Of a stretch of 28,737 nt of DNA, positions 10,640 through 22,608 are shown piece after piece. This DNA comes from a virus, in IMG/VR virus record IMGVR_UViG_3300009514_001427. One strand, written 5' to 3'. The stretch's first letter is position 1, and each line of letters starts with the position of its first letter. A program made the position numbers and the translations under genes. The notes beneath the pieces are model-generated. The model ran no database searches, had not been told where the DNA came from, and saw only the letters and a program-made list of their open reading frames with translations.

Positions 10640-10651
10640 CTGAAATAAGCC
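10640..10651 (+). repeat. CTGAAATAAGCC motif, copy 1 of 8
   Basis: Exact 12-mer. Confidence 0.6.
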
Positions 10652-10720
10652 CAGACTACCTGCGAAAGTGGGCTCCAGTCTCTCCGATCCAAGAGATGCC
10701 ATAATCCGCGTCGGATCAAA

Positions 10721-10758
10721 ATGCCGTCCGTACGGGCAAATACGGGCGGCATTTTTTC
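10721..10758 (+). terminator. rho-independent terminator
   Basis: atgccg-t-ccgta / tacgg-g-cggcat gives a 12-bp stem with one U-G pair and loop cgggcaaa, followed by T6. Confidence 0.75.
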
Positions 10759-10770
10759 TTGGCCTTTTAC

Positions 10771-10798
10771 TTGACATTTCGTTGGGCCGTGGTATACT
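10771..10798 (+). promoter_or_regulatory. sigma70 promoter P10 (class II)
   Basis: TTGACA 10771-10776, TATACT 10793-10798. Confidence 0.7.
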
Positions 10799-10836
10799 CT
10801 AGACAGTTGGAGGAAACTCGAACCAACAGGAGACAA

Positions 10837-11853
10837 ATGATGGTAGCAGCAGTCAGTACACGACATAATGCCTTGGACAGCTTTGGGTCAACTGTCCGCA
10901 ACAAGAAAGACCCGTATGAAGCCATGAGGAAGGCTAAGGGGCTGTTTGGACTCAAGAAGATGTCCCTTGCTGAATTCTCTGGTACGCCTGCCAACCCCGA
11001 CTTACACGTCGTGGTCCGTACCGATACGGGTGAGGCTATCGGTCAAGTCGGCAACAACTACGAGGTTTTCCCGAACGAGTCATTCTTCGGACCAACAGCA
11101 GAAGCGCTGGTTGAAGCGGGAGCCGAGATCACTAAGTTCCAAATGCTGGATCGTGGGACGCGGTCTTTCATGCGTCTTGCCTGGCCAGACGATGCCAACC
11201 TGCGCATCGGCAAGCCCAAAGTCGGCGACATTGTGGGTCGTCGCGCAACACTCTCCACATCACATGACGGCAAGTACGCAGGCAAGTTCACGCTCATGAT
11301 GCTTCGCCTTGCCTGTGAGAATGGGATGACCGTCCCAGTCGGCAGCTTCGACATGAATATGTTTCATACCGTGGGCGGCAAGCAGCAGCTTGTTGAGTTG
11401 AGCAACATGATCCCCACCGTTGAGACATACGTCCGTCAGTTTCAGGTTGCCGCAGACATGATGGCGGAAGTCCCTGTGAAGGCTGGCAGTGACTTGGCGA
11501 TGAAAATCATCGGCAAGGTTGCTGACCCCAAGGGTGGAGCCAAGGATACTTCGGGTGGAACCCCGAATCTCGCCAAGTCTCGCGTCATGCGCATTGCTGA
11601 GCTTTTCGAGGGAGAGCAACCGCAGGCAGACAATGTGGCGATCAAGGATACTGGCTGGGGTCTTTATAATGCTTGCGTGGACTTTTTCACGCATGACAAG
11701 GGGACTCGTGGACAGAACGAATCGGAGCGGTTGGAGCAGCGTTTTAAGAGCTTGCTTCCGGGTGGACCTGCCCAGCGAGAGATCGTACGGGCATGGGGCG
11801 TCGTGACAGATGGATTGGGGGTCAGTAACGCAATTGCCGCAGCAGTAAACTAA
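10837..11853 (+). CDS. hypothetical protein ~338 aa; resembles the DUF932/TIGR03299 phage/plasmid-related family (from memory; motif STSHDGKYAG)
   Basis: AGGAG at 10828-10832 with tandem ATGs at 10837 and 10840. The track ORF begins upstream inside the promoter. Confidence 0.7.
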   Translation: MMVAAVSTRHNALDSFGSTVRNKKDPYEAMRKAKGLFGLKKMSLAEFSGTPANPDLHVVVRTDTGEAIGQVGNNYEVFPNESFFGPTAEALVEAGAEITKFQMLDRGTRSFMRLAWPDDANLRIGKPKVGDIVGRRATLSTSHDGKYAGKFTLMMLRLACENGMTVPVGSFDMNMFHTVGGKQQLVELSNMIPTVETYVRQFQVAADMMAEVPVKAGSDLAMKIIGKVADPKGGAKDTSGGTPNLAKSRVMRIAELFEGEQPQADNVAIKDTGWGLYNACVDFFTHDKGTRGQNESERLEQRFKSLLPGGPAQREIVRAWGVVTDGLGVSNAIAAAVN

Positions 11854-11878
11854 AGCGGCGACAGCGTTACGACCAAGG

Positions 11879-11912
11879 GGACCGGCTCCGGAGGGGGAGT
11901 CGGTCCTTTCTT
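11879..11912 (+). terminator. rho-independent terminator
   Basis: 11-bp stem ggaccggctcc/ggagtcggtcc with one G-U pair and loop ggaggg, followed by TTTCTT. Confidence 0.6.
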
Positions 11913-11921
11913 GGTTCAGGA

Positions 11922-11933
11922 CTGAAATAACTC
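11922..11933 (+). repeat. CTGAAATAAcTC motif variant, copy 2
   Basis: 9/12 core CTGAAATAA. Sits directly after the terminator at 11879-11912. Confidence 0.4.
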
Positions 11934-11965
11934 GCGGATAATTGAATGCTGGCCAAAGATTCTGC

Positions 11966-11993
11966 TTGACATTTATTGCTCATGTGGTATACT
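11966..11993 (+). promoter_or_regulatory. sigma70 promoter P11, leaderless
   Basis: TTGACA 11966-11971, TATACT 11988-11993, ATG at 12000 (+7). Confidence 0.7.
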
Positions 11994-11999
11994 ATAGAC

Positions 12000-12155
12000 A
12001 TGAGAGAGCAAACCACCCCAATCTTATGGGAACGACTCAAGACCTTGCGAGAGAAACTTGCTCGCTTGGTCAGAGCAGGTAAACGTGGCAAGCTCAGAGA
12101 CTGGCGTGAATACAATCTCGTAGCCCGCGTCATTATGCGACGGAGAAAAGCCTAA
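12000..12155 (+). CDS. small basic protein, 51 aa (MREQTTPILWERLKTLREKLARLVRAGKRGKLRDWREYNLVARVIMRRRKA)
   Basis: Leaderless ATG at +7 from the -10. The stop TAA overlaps the next ATG (taATG). It falls below the track's length cutoff. Confidence 0.45.
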   Translation: MREQTTPILWERLKTLREKLARLVRAGKRGKLRDWREYNLVARVIMRRRKA

Positions 12156-12460
12156 TGCCTAAACCAGAATTCAAAACCGAGTGGGAAAGCGATACATACG
12201 ACAAGGCACACGAAGCCATGTCTGCACTGCTCAACCTTGCCAACGGCATGGGCAGTAGCAAGGCAGTGGTAGCAGGTATGCTCGATGGATTCCTCAGCGA
12301 GCACCGTACACTGCAACAGGCAGGAGTACGCAACTTCGTGGGTATGCTTAAGGAGTGGACGAAGTTTAGCGAGCCTGCTATGACAGACCTGCGTAACCAG
12401 GATGCGTGGAAATTCGCAAAGCAGGTTGTCGAGCTTGACCCAATGTTTGCGAATGTTTAG
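12155..12460 (+). CDS. hypothetical protein, 101 aa
   Basis: GGAG at 12142-12145; taATG coupling. Confidence 0.6.
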   Translation: MPKPEFKTEWESDTYDKAHEAMSALLNLANGMGSSKAVVAGMLDGFLSEHRTLQQAGVRNFVGMLKEWTKFSEPAMTDLRNQDAWKFAKQVVELDPMFANV

Positions 12461-12471
12461 TCCATTTCTTC

Positions 12472-12499
12472 TTGACATTTCTTGTGGCCGTGGTATACT
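12472..12499 (+). promoter_or_regulatory. sigma70 promoter P12 (class II, with upstream TTTCTTC), leaderless
   Basis: TTGACA 12472-12477, TATACT 12494-12499, ATG 12506. Confidence 0.7.
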
Positions 12500-12505
12500 A
12501 TAGAC

Positions 12506-12823
12506 ATGAACGACAACAAGACAATCGACGAAGCGGCTCAGGCAATCGACGATCACCAGTCGATGGTCGAATCCCGCACCGATAGGGAAATCTTCGCGGA
12601 GATGAATGAGATGGACCAGCCCAAAGTAACGGACTTCACCACAACCGTACCAGCAGAAAAGAGCGGCTTCGATGTCCGCGTGAAACTGGATAGCCGATGG
12701 GTCACAGTCGGCAATCATCCTACCCGCGAAGATGCAGAGCGAGCGGAATTGGCTCTTAGCCAAGTGATGATCGAATACAGGACCAAGCGCAACGCATGGG
12801 AGAACAGCCATGCCAACAGTTAG
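12506..12823 (+). CDS. hypothetical protein, 105 aa
   Basis: Leaderless ATG; in frame with track ORF 12482..12823. Confidence 0.6.
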   Translation: MNDNKTIDEAAQAIDDHQSMVESRTDREIFAEMNEMDQPKVTDFTTTVPAEKSGFDVRVKLDSRWVTVGNHPTREDAERAELALSQVMIEYRTKRNAWENSHANS

Positions 12824-12829
12824 AGCGAC

Positions 12830-12857
12830 TTGACATTTCCGCTCTATGAGGTATACT
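12830..12857 (+). promoter_or_regulatory. sigma70 promoter P13, leaderless
   Basis: TTGACA 12830-12835, TATACT 12852-12857, ATG 12864 (+7). Confidence 0.7.
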
Positions 12858-12863
12858 AAAACT

Positions 12864-13088
12864 ATGGGACTAACAGTTGACAAGAAAGACTCGCCTCAAG
12901 CTGAGCGAATCATTAACGCGGGCAAAGAAATAACCAAACTGGTCCGCGAAACGGTCTATGCTGACCGACATTCAAGAAACTGTGCTACCGGGGCGCATCC
13001 CAATCGCTGGACGGATGCAGCGAGGAAACGGGATGACGCCGTGAAGTTTTTGAAGGAGCGACTGCAACAAATAGCAGAAGAAATCTGA
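12864..13088 (+). CDS. hypothetical protein, 74 aa
   Basis: Leaderless ATG in frame in ORF 12846..13088. Confidence 0.55.
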   Translation: MGLTVDKKDSPQAERIINAGKEITKLVRETVYADRHSRNCATGAHPNRWTDAARKRDDAVKFLKERLQQIAEEI

Positions 13089-13097
13089 ACAAACTGC

Positions 13098-13125
13098 TTG
13101 ACATTTATCCCTGATGTGGTATACT
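13098..13125 (+). promoter_or_regulatory. sigma70 promoter P14
   Basis: TTGACA 13098-13103, TATACT 13120-13125. Followed by the conserved leader ggtaacgacggcaagttacttgAAGGGAGCTAAAAATG. Confidence 0.7.
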
Positions 13126-13163
13126 TTGGGTAACGACGGCAAGTTACTTGAAGGGAGCTAAAA

Positions 13164-13625
13164 ATGCCACAAATCAGACGAGATGAAATGGTCGTGGGAA
13201 TGCAGGCGGTTAAAACCGTCCAGTCCGCAACTTGGAGACGCCGTGGCGATAAGGTCGTCAACCGTTGCGTCAACTGTGAGTCTGAGACAGCCACCCATGA
13301 GGGCGAGCGATTCTGCAACCACTGCAACTGCTTTGTCCCAACGTACAAGAGTACGGAAGCTGCCGAGGGCGATCTTGTCACGATGCAGTTTATTCCCCGT
13401 ATCAATCCCAACGGGACCAAAAACTGGACCCCCGCTGGCGGTGAATGCTTCGGCGTAGCAACCAGAGCAGAGGCAGACGCGATCAAGCGTAAGCATGGTC
13501 TGGTTGGCGTCCTCAAGATGTCCGAGACTGCCACTGGCGACATGCGGGCTTTGCCACGAGTTATCCCGGTGGATGATGTGGTGACATGGAAAGCCGAGGG
13601 AGTAGAATACGAAGTAGTCGATTGA
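13164..13625 (+). CDS. zinc-ribbon protein (CVNCESETATHEGERFCNHCNC), 153 aa; paralog of the gene at 22006..22506
   Basis: AAGGGAG at 13151-13157. The two paralogs share MQAVKTVQS.TWRRR.DK.V.RCV.CE.ETATH.G.RFCN.C, MQFIPKINP.GTKNWTPAGG and a …EGVEY.VVD C-terminus. Confidence 0.7.
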   Translation: MPQIRRDEMVVGMQAVKTVQSATWRRRGDKVVNRCVNCESETATHEGERFCNHCNCFVPTYKSTEAAEGDLVTMQFIPRINPNGTKNWTPAGGECFGVATRAEADAIKRKHGLVGVLKMSETATGDMRALPRVIPVDDVVTWKAEGVEYEVVD

Positions 13626-13716
13626 AACTATGGGAGCGTAGGAGAAGCAGGGTAGGCGTACGCAACGCCCTGTGGCGACCGATATGTGATATACGGCACT
13701 GTTGGCAGGACGCTGC

Positions 13717-13728
13717 CAGAAATAAGCA
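13717..13728 (+). repeat. CAGAAATAAGCA motif variant, copy 3
   Basis: 10/12 match. Confidence 0.45.
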
Positions 13729-13931
13729 GTGCAATGTGGGGTTGGCACCCACCGCTCCCAGCCAGAACGCGTCAGAGTTGGCACGGTTCTAGAACGTGTA
13801 ACCGAAGGCATTCGGTGATGGGCATTGCGTAGGATAGGTGGGAGGCGCTGATACCTGCATTCCGGTGTAGATGAGCCATCCTTGAAATACCACCCTTTGC
13901 CCGGCAACTCTTATTTTTGTTCATTTTCTTC

Positions 13932-13959
13932 TTGACATTTCTCCTGGCCGTGGTATACT
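13932..13959 (+). promoter_or_regulatory. sigma70 promoter P15 (class II: gttcattttcttcTTGACATTTCTCCTGGCCGTGGTATACT)
   Basis: TTGACA 13932-13937, TATACT 13954-13959. Confidence 0.7.
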
Positions 13960-13977
13960 ATAGGCAGAAGGGAGACA

Positions 13978-14280
13978 ATGATGAGCCACAAAGTTACATG
14001 CGAAGATTGCGGACAAGAGGTTAGCCACGCCAGTTGTCGCACTGTTGGAGCGACGAAGAAATGGCTCTGTGGCGTCTGTGATGAATCATGCGAGCCTTGT
14101 CGTGGCTGCGACTCACACGATGTGGTATACTCCGATCATGGCGTCGATCTTTGCCAGTCCTGCAAGGATAACGCAACGCCAGAGCAAAAAGCGGACTTGT
14201 ACGAGCGTGACTATATGGACGCGCTGGAAAGTGGGCATCCAATGGCAGACCGCATGCCCATGCCTTCTAACTGGAGATAA
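13978..14280 (+). CDS. Cys-rich, probably zinc-binding, protein, 100 aa (many CxxC)
   Basis: AGGGAG at 13968-13973 with tandem ATGs at 13978 and 13981. Confidence 0.6.
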   Translation: MMSHKVTCEDCGQEVSHASCRTVGATKKWLCGVCDESCEPCRGCDSHDVVYSDHGVDLCQSCKDNATPEQKADLYERDYMDALESGHPMADRMPMPSNWR

Positions 14281-14284
14281 CAAA

Positions 14285-14464
14285 ATGCTAGAACGAGTTG
14301 CCAACCTGTTAAGCGGAGTTACACTAGAAGAAGACCCTGAAGGTCTGCTATTGCTCAACCTTGTTGTTCAGATGCAAGAGCATCCAGAAATCGACTGGAC
14401 CATCGACAAAATCAACACCGTCGTTACTGAGTTTCAAGGGTCGCTTGACGAGATGGAGGAGTAA
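14285..14464 (+). CDS. hypothetical protein, 59 aa
   Basis: GGAG at 14273-14276 precedes ATG 14285, in frame in ORF 14045..14464. Confidence 0.45.
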   Translation: MLERVANLLSGVTLEEDPEGLLLLNLVVQMQEHPEIDWTIDKINTVVTEFQGSLDEMEE

Positions 14465-14670
14465 TGTTTCCTGTCAACGGCAAGTGGTTTCTTGAGTCTA
14501 CCCATGAACCCAACAGGGAGATATTCCTAGTCAACCAAGGCGCTACCTGGCGTACTTTCACCCAGTATGGAGATGCTGAAGCGTTCGCTAAAAGGATGGA
14601 TCAGACGCTCAATGACGTCACTATCTTGACAGTGAAACCCGTCCTGCATTTACCGCAAAAAAGCACTTGA
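14464..14670 (+). CDS. hypothetical protein, 68 aa
   Basis: taATG coupling with GGAGG upstream. Confidence 0.5.
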   Translation: MFPVNGKWFLESTHEPNREIFLVNQGATWRTFTQYGDAEAFAKRMDQTLNDVTILTVKPVLHLPQKST

Positions 14671-14694
14671 CATTTCTCCTGGCCGTGGTATACT
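14667..14694 (+). promoter_or_regulatory. sigma70 promoter P16 (class II)
   Basis: TTGACA 14667-14672, TATACT 14689-14694. Confidence 0.7.
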
Positions 14695-14715
14695 GTAGGT
14701 AGAAAGGACGAAACG

Positions 14716-14880
14716 ATGATCAAAGACGTATCCACTCACAATGTCCTCATTCTCTATGTTTGCCCTGACTGTGGCAACGACGCGGACCAGTGGCTCTGCG
14801 ACATTGTCCACAATGGGACGCTGACTTGCGAATGTGGCGTGGACATGGAACTTAAACCTGATTGCCAAGTAAGGGAGTAG
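14716..14880 (+). CDS. small zinc-ribbon protein, 54 aa (CPDCG…CECG)
   Basis: AAAGGA at 14703-14708 precedes ATG 14716, with stop TAG at 14878-14880. It falls below the track's length cutoff. Confidence 0.45.
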   Translation: MIKDVSTHNVLILYVCPDCGNDADQWLCDIVHNGTLTCECGVDMELKPDCQVRE

Positions 14881-14882
14881 TT

Positions 14883-15149
14883 ATGCCTTGCATGTGCGGA
14901 GATACTTACTGTTACTCATGTGGTCCAGCCCAAGGAAACCACCGCTGCGAAATCTGCGGGAAATGGGATGAGGACGGCGGCTGCACGACACCTGACGAAT
15001 GTACTGCCAAGGCTAACGAAATGTATGCCGAGATGCAGGCAGAGCAACAGCGCTTCGATGAGGAAGCAGATGAACATGGGGAATTAGTCGGCAAAGCCCA
15101 CCCGGCTCAAACTCAAGAGATGTGGGAAGAAATAGGCAGAGGTTCATAA
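14883..15149 (+). CDS. Cys-rich protein, 88 aa (CMCGDTYCYSCG…CEICG)
   Basis: AAGGGAG precedes ATG 14883, in frame in ORF 14862..15149. Confidence 0.55.
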   Translation: MPCMCGDTYCYSCGPAQGNHRCEICGKWDEDGGCTTPDECTAKANEMYAEMQAEQQRFDEEADEHGELVGKAHPAQTQEMWEEIGRGS

Positions 15150-15156
15150 AAAGGAC

Positions 15157-15185
15157 TTGACATTTCCCCCGACGTATGGTATAAT
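15157..15185 (+). promoter_or_regulatory. sigma70 promoter P17, perfect consensus TTGACA-17-TGgTATAAT, leaderless
   Basis: TTGACA 15157-15162, TATAAT 15180-15185, ATG 15192 (+7). Confidence 0.7.
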
Positions 15186-15191
15186 AGAACC

Positions 15192-15347
15192 ATGAAGCAG
15201 GATAAGAGACAACTCATCGGTCGCGACCCAACCAAGGGATTGCTGGCCTTCAAAACAGGTTCGCAGCTAAACCGCAAGGATCGACTGCGCAACCGCAACT
15301 CCAAGGTCGCTCGCGCCACCCTTCGACGCCAGCTTAATGGCGACTGA
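15192..15347 (+). CDS. small basic protein, 51 aa (MKQDKRQLIGRDPTKGLLAFKTGSQLNRKDRLRNRNSKVARATLRRQLNGD)
   Basis: Leaderless ATG. It falls below the track's length cutoff. Confidence 0.4.
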   Translation: MKQDKRQLIGRDPTKGLLAFKTGSQLNRKDRLRNRNSKVARATLRRQLNGD

Positions 15348-15367
15348 TTTTTTCGGACCTCCCAGAT

Positions 15368-15379
15368 CTGAAATAAGCC
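15368..15379 (+). repeat. CTGAAATAAGCC motif, copy 4
   Basis: Exact 12-mer, 20 nt after a gene stop. Confidence 0.6.
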
Positions 15380-15515
15380 TCCACTTTTAGCTAAGGTCAT
15401 TCTTGCGCCTGTCCGACAGACGGGCATGAGAATATACAACGATCCATTCGAGCAATTGCTGGCCGACGTAGTTAAGGAATGCGCGGAAGAATTGAACAAA
15501 ATCCAGCCGCAAGAC

Positions 15516-15543
15516 TTGACATTTATTCCCAATGTGGTATACT
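15516..15543 (+). promoter_or_regulatory. sigma70 promoter P18
   Basis: TTGACA 15516-15521, TATACT 15538-15543. Leader is …gacggataaggatactcacAAGGGAGCAAACAATG. Confidence 0.7.
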
Positions 15544-15582
15544 TAAATCAGACGGATAAGGATACTCACAAGGGAGCAAACA

Positions 15583-16194
15583 ATGCTGGCAAAAACAATC
15601 ACTTTCGCAGACGGACGCAAACTGGAGATTCATAGGGACGAACATCCAGAATCCCCGCGTGAATGGGACAACAACGGTATCATGGTCTGTTTCGCACGTC
15701 GCTACAATCTCGGCGACAAGCATGACCACAAGACGCCAGACGACTTCCGTGAATGGCTGAAAGAGCAAGACGTTATCGCTCAACTGCCGTTGTACTTGTA
15801 CGATCATTCCGGTATCACCATGAGCACCGGACCTTTCTCTTGTCCGTGGGATTCAGGTCAAGTCGGTTGGATCGTCGCTACCCGCGAATCGCTCGAATCT
15901 GGTGGACACGACGTAGACAAGCTGGACGTAGCCAAGGTCGAAACGTGGCTCCGTGGCGAAGTAGAGACTTACGATCAATTCCTTCGCGGGGACATTTACG
16001 GATTCATCCTTCGCAAGCCAATTGATCCACCTTGCGAGACTTGTGGACGGGAAGACGATGAAGGCGAAGAAGAATCATCGTGTTGGGGATTCTACGGCGA
16101 CAATCCGCTTGAGAATGGAATGGCGGATAGCTTCACCGACGAACAGCGTGCAGAATTGAAAGCTGGTACTTGCAAAGAAGTTTGCGCATATTAG
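15583..16194 (+). CDS. hypothetical protein, 203 aa
   Basis: AAGGGAG at 15570-15576. The stop TAG abuts the next -35. Confidence 0.7.
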   Translation: MLAKTITFADGRKLEIHRDEHPESPREWDNNGIMVCFARRYNLGDKHDHKTPDDFREWLKEQDVIAQLPLYLYDHSGITMSTGPFSCPWDSGQVGWIVATRESLESGGHDVDKLDVAKVETWLRGEVETYDQFLRGDIYGFILRKPIDPPCETCGREDDEGEEESSCWGFYGDNPLENGMADSFTDEQRAELKAGTCKEVCAY

Positions 16195-16197
16195 CCC

Positions 16198-16225
16198 TTG
16201 ACATTTTGGGCGTATGTGGTATACT
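16198..16225 (+). promoter_or_regulatory. sigma70 promoter P19, drives a non-coding transcript
   Basis: TTGACA 16198-16203, TATACT 16220-16225. Confidence 0.65.
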
Positions 16226-16412: not shown

Positions 16413-16442
16413 GCGGGGGCTGAAATAAGCCCCCGCTTTTCT
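16413..16442 (+). terminator. rho-independent terminator (gcgggggc-TGAAATAA-gcccccgc-TTTTCTT)
   Basis: Perfect 8-bp GC stem, 8-nt loop and a T-run. Confidence 0.8.
16420..16431 (+). repeat. CTGAAATAAGCC motif, copy 5 (forms the loop of a terminator)
   Basis: Exact 12-mer. Confidence 0.6.
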
Positions 16443-16989: not shown

Positions 16990-17017
16990 TTGACATTTAT
17001 TGCTCATGTGGTATACT
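16990..17017 (+). promoter_or_regulatory. sigma70 promoter P21
   Basis: TTGACA 16990-16995, TATACT 17012-17017. Confidence 0.7.
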
Positions 17018-17038
17018 TAGAGCAGAAAGGGAGAGACC

Positions 17039-17529: not shown

Positions 17530-17733
17530 CGTGACACTGATACCATTTCTGACATTTTTTGCACTGCCGAAACTTGAGCTAAGTGGGGCACTGCCTACTT
17601 CCCGATTGAGGCGACGGGAATGCCCAAATGCTCGCCGATGGAGTGTAGACCTGAATACCCAATGGCGGACAGCAGTAAGGGGTGCATTGGGTTAGCGAAA
17701 GAAATAACAGGCAGCCCACTATATATTGAGGCA

Positions 17734-17775
17734 GCCGCTCCGATTCACCCTAAAGTGAGTGTGGATCGGAGCGGC
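17734..17775 (+). other. long hairpin (11-bp stem gccgctccgat/atcggagcggc, 20-nt loop with inner tcac/gtga) in a 365-nt untranslated spacer
   Basis: The inverted repeat is seen directly. A weak T-tract (ttgcgtgttt) follows, so it may be a leaky terminator or an RNA element. Confidence 0.4.
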
Positions 17776-17819
17776 TTGCGTGTTTGCCCAGCTTAACACA
17801 AAAAATGTCAGAATTGTCC

Positions 17820-17847
17820 TTGACAAACGCACCTCATGTGGTATACT
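17820..17847 (+). promoter_or_regulatory. sigma70 promoter P22
   Basis: TTGACA 17820-17825, TATACT 17842-17847. Leader is tagacggtagcgaacaaccttacgccaCAAGGAGCAAACAATG. Confidence 0.7.
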
Positions 17848-17894
17848 TCTTATGTAGACGGTAGCGAACAACCTTACGCCACAAGGAGCAAACA

Positions 17895-18182
17895 ATGGCA
17901 ACCACGCGAAACGGAAAGAAACGCCACAACTGGGTCACGAACTCGACAATCGTTGACGACGAAACAAACAAGACCGCCGCTCGCTTCATCGACTCATGCG
18001 TCCACTTGACGCCAGCCCGTGAAGCAGAGCTTGACAACTTGATCGGCGTCGGGACCGACAAGACCGATCATGAACCAGACCCCGAAATTGTCGGGGCGAT
18101 GGAGGATGAGGACTGGGGCGATAGCTGGATGGATCAGGAGCCAACCGCAGCGGACCTGCGAGCTATTGAGACGGGCAAATAG
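17895..18182 (+). CDS. hypothetical protein, 95 aa
   Basis: CAAGGAGC RBS. Confidence 0.6.
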   Translation: MATTRNGKKRHNWVTNSTIVDDETNKTAARFIDSCVHLTPAREAELDNLIGVGTDKTDHEPDPEIVGAMEDEDWGDSWMDQEPTAADLRAIETGK

Positions 18183-18230
18183 ACCCGCTCAAAACCAAAC
18201 TAGGAGCGGCAGCCGCAAGCGGATTAACTC

Positions 18231-18258
18231 GCCCCCGAGAAATCGGGGGCTTTCTTTT
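18231..18258 (+). terminator. rho-independent terminator with a GNRA tetraloop (gcccccga-GAAA-tcgggggc-TTTCTTTT)
   Basis: Perfect 8-bp stem plus T-run. Confidence 0.8.
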
Positions 18259-18302
18259 GGCCTGTGAGAAAAGAAATAACCTCACGAACTCAAGTTAAAC
18301 CC

Positions 18303-18330
18303 TTGACATTTGCTGGGAAAGAGGTATACT
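18303..18330 (+). promoter_or_regulatory. sigma70 promoter P23, leaderless
   Basis: TTGACA 18303-18308, TATACT 18325-18330, ATG 18338. Confidence 0.7.
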
Positions 18331-18337
18331 ATAAACG

Positions 18338-18769
18338 ATGAAACTGAATGACCGACAACAGGAAAAGGCAATCGGACTGCGCCAGCTTATCAAGTCACCA
18401 AGACCATGTGACGAAAAGGGCTGGTCCGCTCACATCGACTTCACCAGGGCTTTGGCGAAGATGCTCGATGGCATCGACGTAATACAAAGCCCCGTGGCGA
18501 TGAAAGAGACGTTCGACAGGGCTTGGAGAGCTTATGCCCATTACTGGGCAAACGAAAACGACAGGGTTCTGTTTGAAGCACTGGGCAGCGATGAGATACT
18601 GGTCGCAAAGGTCAAGGAGCATGAAAACGGACGGCGAATTGTCAACCGTATTCTTGCCCGAGTGAAAGAACAGTATGGGGGAATTAACCCCGAAGTAAAC
18701 GCCAGCTCCGTCGAAATCACAGACATTCTCACCGAAGAGATGGACGGCGAATGGTCCGAAGAGGTATAA
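18338..18769 (+). CDS. hypothetical protein, 143 aa
   Basis: Leaderless ATG. Confidence 0.65.
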   Translation: MKLNDRQQEKAIGLRQLIKSPRPCDEKGWSAHIDFTRALAKMLDGIDVIQSPVAMKETFDRAWRAYAHYWANENDRVLFEALGSDEILVAKVKEHENGRRIVNRILARVKEQYGGINPEVNASSVEITDILTEEMDGEWSEEV

Positions 18770-18815
18770 TGAGAGGCTTACCTTGATCCCTTGTGGGGTT
18801 GAGTAACTACCGTCA

Positions 18816-18853
18816 GACATAAGGCGCTGTCCGAAAGGGCAACGCCTTATGTC
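18816..18853 (+). terminator. terminator-like hairpin (11-bp stem gacataaggcg/cgccttatgtc, 16-nt loop) with a weak T tract
   Basis: Perfect inverted repeat, then gTTcc. Confidence 0.4.
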
Positions 18854-18877
18854 GTTCCAAATTAGTTCATTTTTCAT

Positions 18878-18906
18878 TTGACATTTATTGCTGGCCGTGG
18901 TATACT
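18878..18906 (+). promoter_or_regulatory. sigma70 promoter P24 (17-nt spacer)
   Basis: TTGACA 18878-18883, TATACT 18901-18906. Leader is tagaacaacggtaagttactctaagccaCAAAGGAGCAAACAATG. Confidence 0.7.
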
Positions 18907-18948
18907 TAGAACAACGGTAAGTTACTCTAAGCCACAAAGGAGCAAACA

Positions 18949-19407
18949 ATGTCAAAGATCAGCTATGTTGGAACTCGCGTCACTCGTAACGCCAAATACA
19001 CTCCAGCCGCCAAGAATGGAATGCTCGACGCCGCTGAACGTGAATTGCGACGATTCACAAAGCCACAGCGTATCAATGAGAATTGGTGGAGCCGACAACT
19101 CGGGTTCCGTGAGGACTACGGGAAACTAACCAACGGGGAAACTCCGTGGGCAACGCTCCGAGTTATGATGACTCGCAACGCCGACGATGGACGCGGCAAA
19201 GGTACGAGATTCGTCCGATTCGAGGCGGGATTCGTCGCAAGATCGAAATTCGATCAAGACCCGGCATGGTATCGACGCGAATACGGCAAGCCCGTCACCA
19301 GCAAGAGAAAACCAGCGCTCAAGAAACAAGGCGTACTCACAGTCTGTACCACAACCTGTCAATGTTGCGGCAGAAAAAATGACCACGTTTGGTACGAAGC
19401 CGCTTGA
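18949..19407 (+). CDS. hypothetical protein, 152 aa (C-terminal CTTTCQCCGRKNDH)
   Basis: AAAGGAGC RBS. The stop TGA lies inside the next -35. Confidence 0.65.
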   Translation: MSKISYVGTRVTRNAKYTPAAKNGMLDAAERELRRFTKPQRINENWWSRQLGFREDYGKLTNGETPWATLRVMMTRNADDGRGKGTRFVRFEAGFVARSKFDQDPAWYRREYGKPVTSKRKPALKKQGVLTVCTTTCQCCGRKNDHVWYEAA

Positions 19408-19431
19408 CTTTTCTCGTGGCCGTGGTATACT
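19404..19431 (+). promoter_or_regulatory. sigma70 promoter P25 (TTGACT, class II)
   Basis: TTGACT 19404-19409, TATACT 19426-19431. Confidence 0.65.
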
Positions 19432-19472
19432 CTAGACAGTGAAGGACAACGAACTCAAACGGAGCTAAGACA

Positions 19473-19661
19473 ATGGCAAAGATGACCAAAAAGAAAATCG
19501 ACGCGGCAGTGGAAGCAGCGTACCAACGCCACTTTGACCGCGTACCCGTCAATATGATGGACCTGCCCAAAATCATGAACATCGGCAGAAACGCCCTTGC
19601 CAACGGTGAGGACTTGGACGCTGCAATGGCAGCAGCAGTCCCCCAGTTTCGGAAGGACTAA
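19473..19661 (+). CDS. hypothetical protein, 62 aa
   Basis: GGAG at 19461-19464. Confidence 0.5.
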   Translation: MAKMTKKKIDAAVEAAYQRHFDRVPVNMMDLPKIMNIGRNALANGEDLDAAMAAAVPQFRKD

Positions 19662-19662
19662 C

Positions 19663-19887
19663 ATGCCAACGCAACAGCGCAAAGACGAATTGTGGGGCAA
19701 GGCGTATGGTGGACCTTGCCCCGAAGATGGACCCGGTAGCATCGAGGACTTGGAAGCCGCAGAAATAATCTACGACCGCGTCACCGCTGGCAACTGCCAA
19801 AACTGCGGAAAGAACGAAGACTGTACTTGCGTCTTTGTCGATCCAAACAACCCGGGCAAAACTGTTGTCGGTTTCCAAAACGGCTAA
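19663..19887 (+). CDS. small Cys-containing protein, 74 aa (CQNCGKNEDCTC)
   Basis: GAAGGA precedes ATG 19663, in frame in ORF 19597..19887. Confidence 0.55.
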   Translation: MPTQQRKDELWGKAYGGPCPEDGPGSIEDLEAAEIIYDRVTAGNCQNCGKNEDCTCVFVDPNNPGKTVVGFQNG

Positions 19888-19906
19888 AGAAAAGTTCATT
19901 TTCTAC

Positions 19907-19934
19907 TTGACAATTCTTGTGGCCGTGGTATACT
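19907..19934 (+). promoter_or_regulatory. sigma70 promoter P26 (class II, upstream AAAGAAAAGTTCATTTTCTAC)
   Basis: TTGACA 19907-19912, TATACT 19929-19934. Confidence 0.7.
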
Positions 19935-19976
19935 ATAGACAGTTGAACAACGCCACGAACACAGGGAGATAAACCG

Positions 19977-20258
19977 ATGAGGACTTACGATAACGGTAGC
20001 GGCTTTACGGTGTCATTCAGCGAGTCTGACGCTGACGAATTTAATGCGTCCTGGCCTTGCAGTACCGTAAACGGACCCGGTTGGTTTGCTTACGATAATA
20101 ACGGCGACCTGACCGATTGTGGAGGCGAAGCCGATCACGGTGACGGGGCGGACTGGCTTGCATTTTCGCAGGACTGCCAAAAGTACGGCGAGCAACGTAT
20201 CGGAGCGCTGAGAAAACGTCACGAGCGAGCCGAAAAGAAAAGTTCATTTTCTTCTTGA
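19977..20258 (+). CDS. hypothetical protein, 93 aa
   Basis: CAGGGAGA RBS. The C-terminus is translated from the promoter UP-region, and the stop TGA is the -35 (cTTGAca). Confidence 0.55.
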   Translation: MRTYDNGSGFTVSFSESDADEFNASWPCSTVNGPGWFAYDNNGDLTDCGGEADHGDGADWLAFSQDCQKYGEQRIGALRKRHERAEKKSSFSS

Positions 20259-20283
20259 CAACCTCTGGAGTATGGGGTATACT
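20255..20283 (+). promoter_or_regulatory. sigma70 promoter P27 (class II)
   Basis: TTGACA 20255-20260, TATACT 20278-20283. Confidence 0.65.
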
Positions 20284-20326
20284 ATAGACAGTTGAGAGTG
20301 AAACACACTTTTCAGGAGCTACTACG

Positions 20327-20551
20327 ATGCCATGTGAAGATGCCCCTTGCTGCGGTTGCTGCACCGTCCCGACCATGCAGGACCAGTACGACGCCGAGGA
20401 AGCCTATTGGGAAGCCGAGGAAGCGGGATTGCTCCCCGGCGAGGATATGGACGGAGACTTTGACTCCGCTATGGCGTCAGCCGGTCACGGCATGGACGAG
20501 GACTACGGCTTTGCAGAGGATATGCACTGCGAAGGATACGACGAATACTAA
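20327..20551 (+). CDS. small acidic Cys-rich protein, 74 aa (CEDAPCCGCC)
   Basis: AGGAG at 20313-20317. Confidence 0.55.
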   Translation: MPCEDAPCCGCCTVPTMQDQYDAEEAYWEAEEAGLLPGEDMDGDFDSAMASAGHGMDEDYGFAEDMHCEGYDEY

Positions 20552-20559
20552 GGAGAGAA

Positions 20560-20577
20560 GGGCGGCGAAAGCCGTCC
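20560..20577 (+). other. small hairpin with a GNRA loop (gggcggc-GAAA-gccgtcc)
   Basis: 7-bp stem with one G-U pair and no T-run. Possibly an RNA stability or processing element. Confidence 0.3.
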
Positions 20578-20593
20578 GCTCCCCGCACTGGAA

Positions 20594-20605
20594 CTGAAAT
20601 AAGCC
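20594..20605 (+). repeat. CTGAAATAAGCC motif, copy 6
   Basis: Exact 12-mer, flanked by a direct repeat of cccgcact. Confidence 0.6.
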
Positions 20606-20628
20606 CGCACTAATTGTTCATTTTCTTC

Positions 20629-20657
20629 TTGACAACTCCCGTGGCATGTGGTATACT
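20629..20657 (+). promoter_or_regulatory. sigma70 promoter P28 (class II), leaderless
   Basis: TTGACA 20629-20634, TATACT 20652-20657, ATG 20664. Confidence 0.7.
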
Positions 20658-20663
20658 TTAGAC

Positions 20664-20909
20664 ATGTTTGAATGGCTCAACAATCTAAAGCCCGGCGATC
20701 AAGTGACTGTCCGTGACCGAGACCACAACAGGCTCGGACAATTCCCAGAAAGACAATGGGCAGAAGTGGTCAGCGAAATCACAGCAGACCATATCAAAAC
20801 TCTGCCCGTTGGATATGTACCGGGATCGAAAACTATCGAGCCATTCAGACTGTTTGACCGACGATTCGGCAGCAGCAATACAGAGGAGCTAAGACCATGT
20901 TCGCAATAG
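20664..20909 (+). CDS. hypothetical protein, 81 aa
   Basis: Leaderless ATG in frame in ORF 20646..20909. Confidence 0.55.
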   Translation: MFEWLNNLKPGDQVTVRDRDHNRLGQFPERQWAEVVSEITADHIKTLPVGYVPGSKTIEPFRLFDRRFGSSNTEELRPCSQ

Positions 20910-21184
20910 TCCTATCAGATGTCAGAGCCAACAGAAACGAACTCGTAGGCTGGAAAGCTACAGTCTATCCCGTCGATGGTTACGACCGTTGCGACGGATG
21001 CCAAGACCACAGCAAGCCCGCTCTAGGCTGTCAATACGTCGAGTCACAAATCCACAAAGACCCCAAAGACGCAATCGACGAAGTTGCAAGGATTGCCGCG
21101 CGACGAGCAGAAAGACGCGAAGGCTCCGAAGTATTCCACGTCCCCCATGAAGAAGTTCAGAAATTTGCTGAACAAATCGCTTGA
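20897..21184 (+). CDS. hypothetical protein, 95 aa
   Basis: GAGGAG RBS. The stop lies inside the next -35. Confidence 0.55.
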   Translation: MFAIVLSDVRANRNELVGWKATVYPVDGYDRCDGCQDHSKPALGCQYVESQIHKDPKDAIDEVARIAARRAERREGSEVFHVPHEEVQKFAEQIA

Positions 21185-21208
21185 CATTTATTCCCCATGT
21201 GGTATACT
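21181..21208 (+). promoter_or_regulatory. sigma70 promoter P29
   Basis: TTGACA 21181-21186, TATACT 21203-21208. Leader is gtaagtgacggcaagagaaaaccaCAAAGGAGCTAAGCCGATG. Confidence 0.7.
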
Positions 21209-21248
21209 GTAAGTGACGGCAAGAGAAAACCACAAAGGAGCTAAGCCG

Positions 21249-21686
21249 ATGGCAAAATGTAACAAACTCTGGACCAAAACCGCGTTTGCAAAAGTCCCTC
21301 CAATCGGAGCGACCGAGAAAATCGCGGCAGAAAATAAGGTCGCACTAGTCAAAATCTTCTGCGCCCTGTCCGATCATCGTCACTATGTACTAGAGTACGA
21401 CCCAGAAACAACCGAAGCGTTCGTCTTGACCACAAACGGCGACGTCTGCGAGCTTGGATATATCCTACTGTCCGAGCTTCAAGAGATGAACGACAACTGG
21501 AATCAACGAAACCCAGAAACAGGACGCCGACGCTTCCTATTCCCACCGTGGGAACGAGAGCTTCACGGTACGCCCTCAGCAGGCTACAACATCGGCAAGG
21601 TACAAGAAGCCCACGCGCGACAATGGAATCAACCCGTATGGAACGCCGCAATCGCAGACGGCAGAGCGGAGGTTATCCCAACATGA
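21249..21686 (+). CDS. hypothetical protein, 145 aa
   Basis: GGAG at 21237-21240, in frame in ORF 21213..21686. Confidence 0.65.
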   Translation: MAKCNKLWTKTAFAKVPPIGATEKIAAENKVALVKIFCALSDHRHYVLEYDPETTEAFVLTTNGDVCELGYILLSELQEMNDNWNQRNPETGRRRFLFPPWERELHGTPSAGYNIGKVQEAHARQWNQPVWNAAIADGRAEVIPT

Positions 21687-21907
21687 CAGCCCAAGAAAAA
21701 GCAGACCAAGCAGCAACCGACAGAGATAAGCAGGCGAGAGAGTACGCCACAAGCTACATTCAAGGCAACCGAAAGAGCGTCTGTCTGGAGATACTCAACG
21801 GACCAAACCCGGCAATCATGGCGTCACTCGTCACAAGGAAACTATGCCGTCAGCATTTTGGAACGGCAGACGAATTCATCCGGATCTTGGCGGCTCAAGT
21901 GGACTGA
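21683..21907 (+). CDS. hypothetical protein, 74 aa
   Basis: ATGA overlap with GAGCGGAGG upstream. In frame in ORF 21548..21907. Confidence 0.5.
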   Translation: MTAQEKADQAATDRDKQAREYATSYIQGNRKSVCLEILNGPNPAIMASLVTRKLCRQHFGTADEFIRILAAQVD

Positions 21908-21915
21908 AATAAGCC
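21904..21915 (+). repeat. CTGAAATAAGCC motif, copy 7 (overlaps the stop codon of the gene ending at 21907)
   Basis: Exact 12-mer. Confidence 0.6.
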
Positions 21916-21937
21916 GACAAAATTGTTCCTTTTTCGT

Positions 21938-21965
21938 TTGACTATTCCGTCTCATGTAGTATACT
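21938..21965 (+). promoter_or_regulatory. sigma70 promoter P30 (TTGACT-16-TATACT)
   Basis: TTGACT 21938-21943, TATACT 21960-21965. Leader is ctatgtagacgacggttactcaaacAAAGGGAGCTAGACAATG. Confidence 0.6.
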
Positions 21966-22005
21966 CTATGTAGACGACGGTTACTCAAACAAAGGGAGCT
22001 AGACA

Positions 22006-22506
22006 ATGCCAAACATCAGCCGACAAGACTTTATCGCAGGGACACAAGCGGTTAGGACGATTCAGTCGATAACGTGGCGTAGACGATCCGACAAGATTGT
22101 CAAGCGTTGCGTACAATGCGAAGCCGAAACCGCTACGCATCGGGGACAACGATTCTGCAACGCTTGTGACGAATTCGTCGCAACGTATGACGCCAAAGAA
22201 GCCGAAGCGGGCGACGTAGTACGGATGCAATTCATCCCGAAAATCAACCCCGAAGGCACGAAAAATTGGACGCCCGCAGGTGGCTTTATTTTCAACGCTC
22301 CGACCCGCGAAGCCGCCGAAGCTATCAAACGTCGCAAGGGCTTGATTCAATGCCTGAAAATGGGCGAGCAAATGCCCACAAACGACGCGGACGAGATTAG
22401 GGCAATGATCGACGCTGGCGACCTGAAAGCCTTACCGCGTTGTTTCGGAGCGTATGACGTAGAAACATGGACCGCCGAAGGCGAAACGTATACCGTCGTG
22501 GATTAG
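22006..22506 (+). CDS. zinc-ribbon protein, 166 aa; paralog of the gene at 13164..13625
   Basis: AAAGGGAGC RBS. CVQCEAETATHRGQRFCNACDEF. Confidence 0.7.
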   Translation: MPNISRQDFIAGTQAVRTIQSITWRRRSDKIVKRCVQCEAETATHRGQRFCNACDEFVATYDAKEAEAGDVVRMQFIPKINPEGTKNWTPAGGFIFNAPTREAAEAIKRRKGLIQCLKMGEQMPTNDADEIRAMIDAGDLKALPRCFGAYDVETWTAEGETYTVVD

Positions 22507-22524
22507 CTCCCACAAACGAGCGTA

Positions 22525-22560
22525 AGCGGGGGACGGTCCCCCGCTCGCTCCGCTCGCTTT
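22525..22560 (+). terminator. terminator-like hairpin (agcggggg-acggt-cccccgct) with a weak T tract
   Basis: 8-bp GC stem, then …cgcTTTcc. Confidence 0.4.
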
Positions 22561-22596
22561 CCTCAGAACTGACATAACCACATCCGCTCGTCAGCG

Positions 22597-22608
22597 CAGA
22601 AATAAGCC
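22597..22608 (+). repeat. CAGAAATAAGCC motif, copy 8
   Basis: 11/12 match. Confidence 0.55.

Follow-up and report, generated by a model that had tools for sequence, protein, structure and literature searches.

The window analysed here, a stretch of 28,737 nucleotides that makes up about 19% of a 153-kb contig, carries on its + strand, from position 10163 to 22689, an array of sigma70-type promoters, about 25 in number and near-identical, with the consensus sequence (TTGACA-N16-TGnTATACT), each leading into one to three tiny genes. The promoters, the UP-like regions and the 5' UTRs are near-identical repeats. Copies of a short motif, CTGAAATAAGCC, lie at the ends of these units. As an earlier note on this DNA had described, the motif occurs five times in exact form (10640, 15368, 16420, 20594 and 21904) and three times as a variant (11922 and 13717 with two mismatches each, 22597 with one), always on the + strand.

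The settings of these eight copies differ. The first exact copy (10640..10651) belongs to a conserved non-coding transcription unit that precedes the DUF932 gene. The non-coding RNA of this unit is structured, with a promoter and a terminator of its own, and the copy falls in a variable, lineage-specific insertion of it. The second, CTGAAATAACTC (11922..11933, hereafter slot A), begins 6 nt past a hairpin of -33 kcal/mol (11871-11916) that follows the DUF932 stop, with the next -35 element at 11966, 44 nt on. The third, CAGAAATAAGCA (13717..13728), shares a non-coding gap of 300 nt with a domain resembling the L1 stalk of rRNA and is found 92 nt past the stop of gene 13164-13625, and the fourth, again exact (15368..15379, slot B), is flanked by two small genes, the basic X (15192-15347) and the acidic Y (start 15426). 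The fifth, exact (16420..16431, slot C), is the loop of a terminator-like hairpin that spans 16412-16437 (previously placed at 16413-16442) and precedes TTTTCTTG. Both of the next two are exact: copy 6 (20594..20605) lies 43 nt past the stop of gene 20327-20551, is preceded by a GAAA-tetraloop hairpin and has a -35 at 20629, 35 nt on, while copy 7 (21904..21915) supplies with its own TGA the stop codon of gene 21683-21907 and has a -35 at 21938, 34 nt on. The last, CAGAAATAAGCC (22597..22608), is 91 nt past the stop of gene 22006-22506, a paralogue of gene 13164-13625, and 65 nt before the -35 of the ArdC promoter. From first to last the distances to the next -35 are 131, 44, 215, 148, 45, 35, 34 and 65 nt, in agreement with the range of 35-220 nt to the next promoter given earlier.

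The motif is real and far above chance. Allowing up to two mismatches, the window holds 10 matches to CTGAAATAAGCC where 2.0 are expected, a number reached by none of 100 dinucleotide-preserving shuffles (0/100). The 9-mer CTGARATAR occurs seven times against 0.76 expected, all seven on the + strand, and the 7-mer GAAATAA is divided 13:0 between the + and - strands. Seven of the eight main copies are non-coding on a gene map whose coding fraction is 0.76 across 10.1-22.7 kb. Several copies had been missed at first reading, namely the weaker variants AAGAAATAACAG (17699..17710, +), in the non-coding spacer 17530-17820, and AAGAAATAACCT (18271..18282, +), in a spacer 20 nt past the terminator 18231-18250 and 32 nt before a -35 at 18303, together with copies or variants that lie in frame within genes (1365, 12925, 15127, 19760 and 21721). 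The first of these, CTGAAATAA (1365..1373, +), lies in a RuvB-like gene and reads S-E-I-T in the only open frame. Across the element family 19 in-frame copies within genes were observed against 3.75 expected, and these use the rarer ATA codon. The description of the motif as wholly intergenic thus holds for the eight copies originally listed but is too strong for the motif family.

Nine relatives were found via the neighbouring DUF932 gene, and the check in relatives proposed in the earlier note showed the motif to be conserved and enriched in all nine loci, with clade-specific variants. The common core is C[T/C]GA[A/G]ATA[A/G], on the gene strand, and ATA is always followed by a purine. Enrichment ranges from about 9- to 800-fold depending on the locus and the pattern, with eight copies against 0.06 expected in L191 and eight against 0.01 in L184, all on the gene strand; the minus-strand copies of L192 fall in minus-strand gene blocks. 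Gene content is highly mosaic between the relatives. Within one genome the copies are uniform and the similarity of their flanks ends beyond about 12 nt, while the spelling differs by clade and tracks the DUF932 tree (CTGAAATAAGCC, CTGAAATARC, CTGAGATAG and CCGAAATAAGTG). At orthologous sites the motif is invariant and the flanks have diverged; the copy at 10640, for instance, is the same in the window and in L177 with differing flanks, and the insertion that holds it is absent from the homologous RNA of L186, L189, L192, L184 and L202. Clade-specific spelling combined with unrelated flanks points to a trans-acting factor that co-evolves with its sites, since uniform copies spelled by clade are what would be expected if every copy had to fit one such reader. 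A host housekeeping signal or inert relics do not fit this pattern.

No shared hairpin was found among the seven window copies other than slot C, and a stem is present only at this orthologous terminator-loop copy, in line with the earlier view that sequence rather than structure is conserved. The slot C terminator stem shows compensatory changes in 7 of its 13 pairs across six lineages, while the loop keeps the spelling of each lineage as a GARAU pentaloop or a GAAAUA hexaloop with U-A closing; its distance to the -35 is 45 nt in the window versus 33-37 nt in the orthologues. Slot A has an orthologue 3' of DUF932 in L177, L186, L190, L192, L194 and L195, and the slot B position is also occupied in L182 (by a tandem pair), L186, L180 and L190; in L182 and L186 gene X ends on the TGA of the motif.

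The position of the motif within the units is strongly skewed and offers the best clue to its role. With promoters predicted by consensus and sites that are partly orthologous and hence non-independent, the last fifth of the interval from one sigma70-type promoter to the next contains 41 of 61 copies and the first two fifths only one (KS p = 8e-14). Copies inside genes are skewed alike (1/18 in the first 40% of the interval, p = 0.0013), and a predicted start site is nearer than 100 nt for just 2/61 copies, compared with 18% of random positions in the same loci. A strong hairpin occupies the 55 nt upstream of 24% of intergenic copies versus 5.6% of random positions, and copies lie 0-20 nt past a terminator T-tract at slot A (seven lineages), at 17172 and 20430 in L184, at 1302 in L190 and at 587 in L191, where the motif abuts the T-tract.

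The earlier note had offered, without choosing, a binding site for an element-encoded regulator, an RNA processing or 3'-end signal and a promoter for a non-sigma70 polymerase, and each of these has its counterpart among the explanations weighed here. The observations are best explained, at a probability of roughly 0.35, if the motif is a duplex-DNA site for a protein encoded by the element that would, in the manner of a stoperator, form a polar barrier or insulator where one unit meets the next. A sequence-specific factor, encoded by the element family and co-evolving with it, would recognise the motif, most likely on duplex DNA, where it would mark the downstream end of small units within a dense tandem array of very strong sigma70-type promoters. 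Its action on RNA polymerase arriving from upstream would be polar, and the barrier would back up intrinsic terminators that are often imperfect and shield the next promoter. We infer all three components, protein binding, a DNA rather than an RNA reading and a block to elongation. Copies past T-tracts would be missing from a properly terminated RNA, which favours a DNA-level reading or one that concerns read-through polymerases only, and the tandem pair of L182, exactly 10 bp apart and so on the same helix face, was also counted in favour of this explanation, as was the most frequent spacing to the next -35, 33-35 nt. Against reading on DNA, the slot C loop and the variable arm of the non-coding RNA at 10640 look designed for display on RNA. 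Against a barrier, the slot B copy separates two genes of one operon, and copies inside genes would truncate messages. Moreover, only about 13% of the family's promoters have a copy within 70 nt upstream (87% have none) and the unit ends at 3250, at 18860 and past ArdC carry no copy, so the motif cannot be a general insulator. Among the 33 small proteins of the window and the larger ones no match to a helix-turn-helix or repressor family was found.

The closest known parallel is provided by the cluster A mycobacteriophages, in which asymmetric stoperators with bound repressor stop elongation. A genome carries more than 20 stoperators of the L5 type; these asymmetric sites of 13 bp occupy short intergenic spaces, have an orientation that correlates with the direction of transcription and lose their function when reversed (PMC9283540). 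Like these, our motif is short (12-13 bp), asymmetric and dispersed at about one per 1-2 kb, lies in short intergenic spaces and at stop codons, follows transcription in orientation and varies in sequence between relatives (PMC9283540). Unlike them, it has an unrelated sequence, no gp71-like repressor was found among the window proteins, no copy overlaps a promoter as an operator would, each tiny unit has its own consensus promoter, and some copies lie in RNA hairpin loops. The C1 operators of phage P1 are likewise asymmetric and scattered (about 17 bp, versus 12 bp for the motif) and are all read by one element-encoded protein, as we propose for the motif, but they overlap the promoters that they control whereas copies of the motif are either upstream of a promoter or remote from any.

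A possible though rather less probable explanation is that the motif works in the transcript, where a sequence-specific RNA-binding protein or an endoribonuclease would read it. Its task would then be to set 3' ends, to divide cistrons, to free small RNAs located at the 3' side, or to tag or titrate a factor. The covarying stem that always presents the slot C motif in a terminator loop, and the presumably exposed insertion that holds copy 10640, both suit this explanation, as do orientation with the genes and avoidance of 5' UTRs. A short structured segment and a terminator follow the copies at 10640, 13717, 17699 and 17135 of L189, as a processing site upstream of a 3'-derived small RNA might require, and RNase E prefers RN|WUU with U at +2, to which GA[A/G]AUA is close. 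The core is predicted to be unpaired in 7/8 window copies, yet the accessibility of the 12-mer (0.56) does not differ from that of A/T-matched controls (0.50 +/- 0.19). A host RNase would need neither 9-12 specified bases nor clade-specific spellings, the many copies directly past T-tracts would be lost from terminated RNAs, and the motif has no complementary partner in the window (TTATTTC is absent from the + strand). The lambda/P22 nut boxB, the site of N/Nun, offers an RNA-level likeness: the core CUGAAAUAG is one position off the lambda nutR boxB core CUGAAAAAG, slot C has a comparable U-A-closed loop, and a small arginine-rich protein (X) is encoded beside one copy. However, 7/8 window copies are stemless, there is no boxA, copies lie past terminators rather than between promoter and terminator, and a U at loop position 5 breaks the GNRA-like fold. 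We regard as unlikely a compact promoter of a middle or late class, used by a sigma-like factor or an RNA polymerase that the element encodes. Such a promoter would give selected units a second start independent of host sigma70. Sites after terminators or in the 3' end of the upstream gene, away from fresh start sites and co-oriented with genes, are typical of promoters; specificity that changes by clade is typical of phage polymerase-promoter pairs, and the invariable purine after ATA is a possible start. The motif lies 58 nt upstream of gene Y, which lacks a sigma70 promoter, in four lineages (44 nt in L190), and 100 nt upstream of the L1-stalk-like RNA at 13816-13906, for which there is no good sigma70 promoter; terminator-loop promoter elements occur in L289, an unrelated jumbo-phage contig. 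Promoters can be this short, as in T4 late genes (TATAAATA, 8 bp) and yeast mitochondria (ATATAAGTA, 9 nt), the latter matched by the L184 form AAATAAGTG at 7/9 positions. The resemblance to T4 late elements raised in the earlier note is nevertheless weak and otherwise unsupported (GAAATA versus TAAATA; 5/8 positions match TATAAATA). Both signals are compact, A/T-rich and asymmetric (8-9 nt), without a -35, co-oriented with genes and placed intergenically or in upstream gene 3' ends. T4 late promoters depend on gp55, gp33 and gp45, however, and no gp55- or gp33-like gene was seen; the motif lies in an apparent early region, upstream of host-type promoters rather than near start codons. Furthermore, 13 of the 33 promoter-proximal copies precede leaderless genes (ATG 6 nt past the -10, no Shine-Dalgarno), from which a longer transcript starting at the motif would probably go untranslated. 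A strong terminator (10722-10757) separates copy 10640 from the next gene, a tandem pair at 10 bp would be odd for a promoter, no further conserved element keeps a constant distance from the motif, and neither the window nor the relatives' flanks yielded a sigma or polymerase gene.

It is improbable that the motif is an upstream site of the next sigma70 promoter, which would then be activated or repressed by a factor, or by the alpha C-terminal domain of RNA polymerase, sitting at about -65. The spacing from motif to -35 has a sharp mode at 33-35 nt (12/33 promoter-proximal copies), which recurs in several clades at non-orthologous sites with unrelated sequence between and puts the motif just outside the footprint of the UP element and RNA polymerase. 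Smaller groups at 22-23 and 44-46 nt lie about one helical turn off the mode, and a -35-like element of gene Y follows the slot B copies after 23-24 nt (after 20 nt in L190). However, for about half of the copies no promoter is nearer than 90 nt, the slot A orthologue distances (14, 22, 29, 33, 34 and 44 nt) are not quantised, and a single mode dominates the periodicity test. The promoters already match consensus and mostly lack a copy, and copies inside genes and the non-coding RNA do not fit. Already disfavoured, and very unlikely, is an inert by-product, either a relic of duplicated intergenic cassettes or a junction of cassette-shuffling recombination. The near-identical repeats and mosaic gene content speak for it and recall the promoter-stem-loop (PeSL) cassettes of T4-type phages, where the small novel genes of a hyperplastic, mosaic region stand between repeated near-identical early promoters and stem-loops, with recombination junctions at promoters. 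Those cassettes lack a separate conserved 9-12-mer, whereas the motif is an addition conserved independently of promoter and hairpin. It is invariant amid unrelated or diverged flanks, uniform per genome yet clade-specific, and five-fold enriched in frame despite the rarer ATA codon; where the window and L177 lose synteny after slot A, the break falls at the promoter and start site, not at the motif.

Taken as a polar barrier on duplex DNA or otherwise, the motif is a new unit-end signal of this element family. The family consists of large uncultured mobile elements in which a signal of 9-12 bases ends tiny transcription units, and a factor encoded by the element, which would control transcription at unit ends, probably docks at the motif.

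A scan of the window recovered the five exact copies of CTGAAATAAGCC (at 10640, 15368, 16420, 20594 and 21904) and the three variants of it (at 11922, 13717 and 22597) that the earlier note had reported, all eight on the + strand. When up to two mismatches were allowed, CTGAAATAAGCC gave 10 matches against 2.0 expected, a number equalled in none of 100 shuffles; the degenerate 9-mer CTGARATAR occurs seven times against 0.76 expected, and the GAAATAA core shows a strand ratio of 13:0. The 9-12-nt core has no dyad symmetry. Seven of the eight are non-coding on the gene map of a region whose coding fraction is 0.76, and from the copy at 21904 gene 21683-21907 takes its TGA stop. The description of the copies as all intergenic is too strong for the motif family, which has in-frame copies inside genes at 1365, 12925, 15127, 19760 and 21721. 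Weaker variants are present at 17699 and 18271, each in a further long spacer. Within the window the motif keeps to the small-gene array, with 8-11 copies in 12 kb, nearly none in 1-10 kb and none in 23-28.7 kb.

The earlier note had called for a count in relatives. Their loci around homologues of the window's DUF932 protein (labelled L177 to L195 here) are syntenic, have the same promoter arrays and contain the same kind of motif, enriched on the gene strand at a density of 5-8 copies per 20 kb and with the family core C[T/C]GA[A/G]ATA[A/G]. Each locus carries 2-8 gene-strand copies of CTGARATAR against about 0.1-0.4 expected, statistics that overstate independence because many of the sites are orthologous. 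Opposite-strand copies were absent from all loci except L192, where they sit within minus-strand gene blocks; since these blocks may be inherited inversions, the strand evidence from this locus is weak.

The spelling of the motif is clade-specific and tracks the DUF932 tree. Specifically, CTGAAATAAGCC is used in the window, L177, L182 and L186, CTGAAATA[A/G]C in L180 and L190, CTGAGATAG in L189, L191, L192, L194 and L195, and CCGAAATAAGTG in L184, with eight copies in L191 against 0.06 expected and eight in L184 against 0.01 expected. When 73 instances were aligned on the motif, similarity ended at about 10-12 nt, and at sites orthologous between the window and L177 core positions 1-9 are identical, while the flanks and the last bases differ. 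Copies that are spelled alike in one genome but differently from clade to clade, and whose flanks are unrelated, point to selection by a co-evolving reader, that is, a hypothetical trans factor recognising the motif, and speak against inert relics as well as against a host signal of universal use.

We then considered position relative to units, each running from one predicted sigma70-type promoter to the next and holding tiny genes; promoters, genes and terminators are all consensus-based predictions. The last fifth of this interval contains 41 of 61 copies and the first two fifths only one (KS p = 8e-14), and a predicted start is within 100 nt of just two of the 61, compared with 18% of positions picked at random in those loci. 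About a quarter to a third of the family's copies are inside genes, where they are enriched (19 in-frame versus 3.75 expected from codon usage), and only one of 18 such copies falls in the first 40% of its unit (p = 0.0013). For a third of the copies a -35 follows at 14-70 nt, and these distances have their mode at 33-35 nt; an apparent helical signal in this phasing stems from that single mode, the distances at one set of orthologous copies (slot A, described below) being unquantised. All copies lie clear of -35 and -10 elements, the nearest being 14 nt upstream of a -35 in L195, and only about 13% of promoters bear a copy. A strong hairpin is present in the 55 nt upstream of 24% of intergenic copies versus 5.6% of random positions, and many copies lie 0-20 nt past a terminator's T-tract. 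For units predicted from consensus, these results establish the motif as a transcription-linked, polar, end-of-unit element whose reader differs in specificity between clades.

Three of the window copies have orthologous copies in relatives. Slot A (11922) lies 3' of the DUF932 terminator in seven lineages. Slot B (15368) separates X, a small gene for an arginine-rich product, from Y, a small acidic one, and sometimes gives X its stop codon. Slot C (16420) is the loop of a terminator (hairpin 16412-16437), as the earlier note had seen, along with the lack of any common hairpin at the other seven copies; across six lineages 7 of the 13 stem pairs show compensatory changes, and each lineage keeps its own spelling in the loop. 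Copy 10640 lies inside a lineage-specific insertion of a conserved structured non-coding RNA upstream of DUF932. This RNA (10530-10757, +) has its own promoter (10494-10522) and its own terminator, an invariant CCCGUAAGNCGYGAGAGCGGG hairpin region, a long-range CGGA/UCCG helix and a covarying CUCU/AGAG helix; it occurs in seven lineages and matches no Rfam family.

Other local arrangements were seen. In the region 16198-16445 (+) a promoter precedes a Shine-Dalgarno and a 3-codon mini-ORF, with the slot C terminator about 120 nt further on, a layout resembling a leader-peptide/attenuator unit; the mini-ORF has 3-9 codons in five of six lineages examined and its sequence is unconserved. The paralogous genes 13164-13625 and 22006-22506, both with CxxC...CxxC, are followed by the variant CAGAAATAAGC 92 and 91 nt after their respective stops, the sequence between being unalignable by eye. 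A tandem pair exactly 10 bp apart (CTGAAATAGACTGAAATAAGCC) is found at L182 14380-14401, and pairs 37-44 nt apart at L191 (18284 and 18328), L192 (2093 and 2132) and L190 (13916 and 13953). In three lineages TAAAC-N15/16-GCCGATA, which matches the sigma28 (FliA) consensus well, stands before gene Y (L191 12330-12365; L189 14800-14836; L192 minus strand, near forward 19550); the Y ATG is 8-9 nt past this site, so Y may be leaderless.

The array itself comprises, at 10.1-22.7 kb, about 25 near-identical consensus sigma70-type promoters (TTGACA-N16-TGnTATACT), all on the + strand and each with one to three tiny genes; a promoter scan found 47 promoter-like sites against 11.6 expected, with eight more promoters in 1-10 kb. 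Over 150-24200 (+), densest at 10100-22700, about 33 near-identical promoters (TTGACATTT...GTGGTATACT) lie on one strand in two recurring spacer classes, and the promoter is conserved across relatives of 41-52% G+C. Synteny between relatives breaks at the promoter/start site, suggesting promoter-mediated cassette shuffling comparable to the T4 promoter-stem-loop cassettes. Many window genes have their ATG exactly 6-7 nt past the -10 hexamer and no Shine-Dalgarno (for example at 10197, 12000, 12506, 12864, 15192, 16499, 18338, 20664 and 24191), and their mRNAs are therefore probably leaderless, a type that accounts for about 40% (88/217) of the family promoters with an assignable gene. On inspection of the window map, an upstream copy or variant of the motif accompanied five of eight leaderless promoters versus two of 14 Shine-Dalgarno-led ones, a link that was gone across the family (13/88 versus 17/129, p = 0.84). 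A 500-nt non-coding stretch (23680-24190) follows the ArdC gene, and beyond 24000 GC and AT skew change, a methyltransferase gene lies on the minus strand (25100-25771) and there are zero motif copies; the array appears to end around 24 kb. The family promoter pattern gave nothing but unrelated matches in GTDB genomes and no relatives in IMG/VR, where one match was the low-GC L289 (contig 3300021387_000299, 178 kb, 38% G+C). Within 10 kb this contig, viral but unrelated, carries 23 consensus promoters, several of which have their -35 hexamer in the loop of the terminator hairpin before them (GGGGG-TTGACAAAA-CCCCC); it is an independent case of promoter elements packed into terminator loops.

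The few recognisable window proteins are a RuvB-like AAA+ ATPase, the DUF932 protein, an ArdC-like anti-restriction protein and an HD-domain protein. A 621-aa GHKL-type ATPase has relatives mostly on conjugative megaplasmids and hardly ever in phages. A 153-kb JGI contig carries a protein 100% identical to the DUF932 protein, which has more than 50 relatives, some of them on contigs as long as 580 kb; its subfamily lacks relatives on plasmids, and those in actinophages are distant. On this evidence the family could be either a huge phage or a megaplasmid. Megablast against phage and plasmid collections found no DNA nearly identical to the window. The window belongs to an uncharacterised family of large uncultured mobile elements (contigs of 150-580 kb). 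A 91-nt segment in a non-coding gap (13816-13906, +), with its own closing stem, matches positions 2125-2216 of the bacterial 23S rRNA model with 51.4 bits (gathering score 50; E = 9.6e-13), the only Rfam match in the window, relatives giving none. These positions form the L1 stalk (helices 76-78), the domain that binds uL1 and contacts the tRNA elbow, and the segment gives the impression of a discrete mimic of an rRNA domain, carried by a mobile element, for which a quick literature search found no precedent. The match is absent from eight relatives, and the nearest relative's contig stops just short of that point.

The closest known system is the stoperator, the repressor site of cluster A mycobacteriophages. 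Like stoperators, the motif is short and asymmetric, has many dispersed copies, is oriented with transcription and lies in short intergenic spaces or at a stop codon (in the window, seven of eight copies non-coding and one at a stop codon). Unlike stoperators, which also include an operator over the early lytic promoter, no copy overlaps a -35 or -10; the stoperator repressor, which when bound stops elongation in one orientation of the site, is monomeric, with an HTH and a second DNA-binding domain, and no HTH or repressor family was found in the proteins of the 28.7-kb window (of a 153-kb contig). The earlier note's likeness to the T4 late promoter did not survive comparison: CTGAAATA agrees with TATAAATA, the T4 late consensus at about -10, at five of eight positions at best, the first base of TAAATA is G in all clades, and no gp55/gp33-like factors were found in the window or the relatives' flanks. 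Lambda nut boxB, a 5-bp stem with a GNRA-like pentaloop, was also rejected, as only the slot C copy has a stem and the loop is GARAU or GAAAUA; moreover, boxB has a boxA nearby and sits past a promoter but ahead of the terminators to be overridden, whereas the motif is scarce in the first 40% of units, its copies mostly come after terminators, and no boxA-like conserved flank was found near them. The motif is not an intrinsic terminator, as it forms no hairpin itself, one copy being a terminator loop and about a quarter of intergenic copies following a strong hairpin. Nor is it a sigma70 -10 or extended -10 (TGnTATAAT-like, A at -11, T at -7), as the window form, when read as TGn and a hexamer, yields AATAAG without the T at -7, and the L184 form has no TG. 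We rate it as a new variety of dispersed, asymmetric, transcription-polar site in an undescribed element family.

Further readings were discarded. RNA accessibility of the motif is the same as that of A/T-matched controls; a three-frame stop cluster fails because stops occur in two frames only and the L184 variant has no TGA; a Chi-, KOPS- or packaging-type polarity signal does not suit a motif that is limited to the small-gene array and switches strand with the local genes; Type III restriction avoidance would deplete the motif, which is enriched; and the synteny break expected of a recombination junction falls at the promoter rather than the motif. No antisense or complementary partner was found within the window, and a motif-plus-TTGACA scan of IMG/VR and a full-text literature search for the motif sequence returned only unrelated single matches and unrelated primer matches, respectively.

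The reading we prefer, with a probability of roughly one in three, is that the motif is a duplex-DNA site for an element-encoded barrier or insulator protein acting against polymerases arriving from upstream. It is suggested by the many copies just past T-tracts, which would be absent from the terminated RNA, by a preferred spacing that puts the motif just outside the footprint of the next promoter, and by the match of the whole pattern to documented mycobacteriophage stoperator properties (PMC9283540). Against it, no binding protein was found in the window (a search of its proteins against Pfam, PHROG and PDB sequences gave no DNA- or RNA-binding family, sigma factor or polymerase), no copy is a promoter-overlapping operator, few promoters have a copy, and the copies in the terminator loop and the non-coding RNA look like RNA display. 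Those two copies, and several arrangements of motif, short structure and terminator, would instead suit a signal read in the transcript, a rather unlikely alternative that the post-terminator copies misfit.

The positions fit equally well a compact promoter for an element-encoded sigma or polymerase, which would also suit gene Y and the L1-stalk-like RNA, both without sigma70 promoters; this we consider unlikely given the leaderless genes downstream of 13 of 33 promoter-proximal copies, the strong terminator after copy 10640, and the lack of a visible sigma or polymerase enzyme in the window or the relatives' flanks. An upstream site acting on the next promoter would account for the 33-35-nt mode but leaves distant and in-gene copies unexplained, and is improbable. 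Least probable by far are inert cassette remnants, disfavoured by the spelling and flank pattern. More broadly, it is possible, and we propose it tentatively, that this element family has its own sequence-specific unit-boundary system outside actinobacteriophages. In one form, a polar tag of 9-12 nt, set behind intrinsic terminators or in their loops within a consensus-promoter array, would serve as the docking site of a new termination or insulation factor that reads DNA or RNA; in the other, an unrecognised polymerase or sigma encoded by the element would use the motif as its 9-nt promoter. In either form, tag and reader would co-evolve clade by clade.

Almost all proteins of these elements lack recognisable domains, none of the 33 small window proteins matching a Pfam family, and the tiny genes of the array are probably host-takeover or anti-defence genes. 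The polar, clade-spelled motif offers a handle on how dozens of them are timed or insulated, and a practical signature for recognising family members in metagenomes. A reader protein, if found, would reveal either a block to elongation of the stoperator type, outside mycobacteriophages, or a minimal promoter-polymerase pair of a new kind, and either outcome, if true, would provide a useful orthogonal transcription part.
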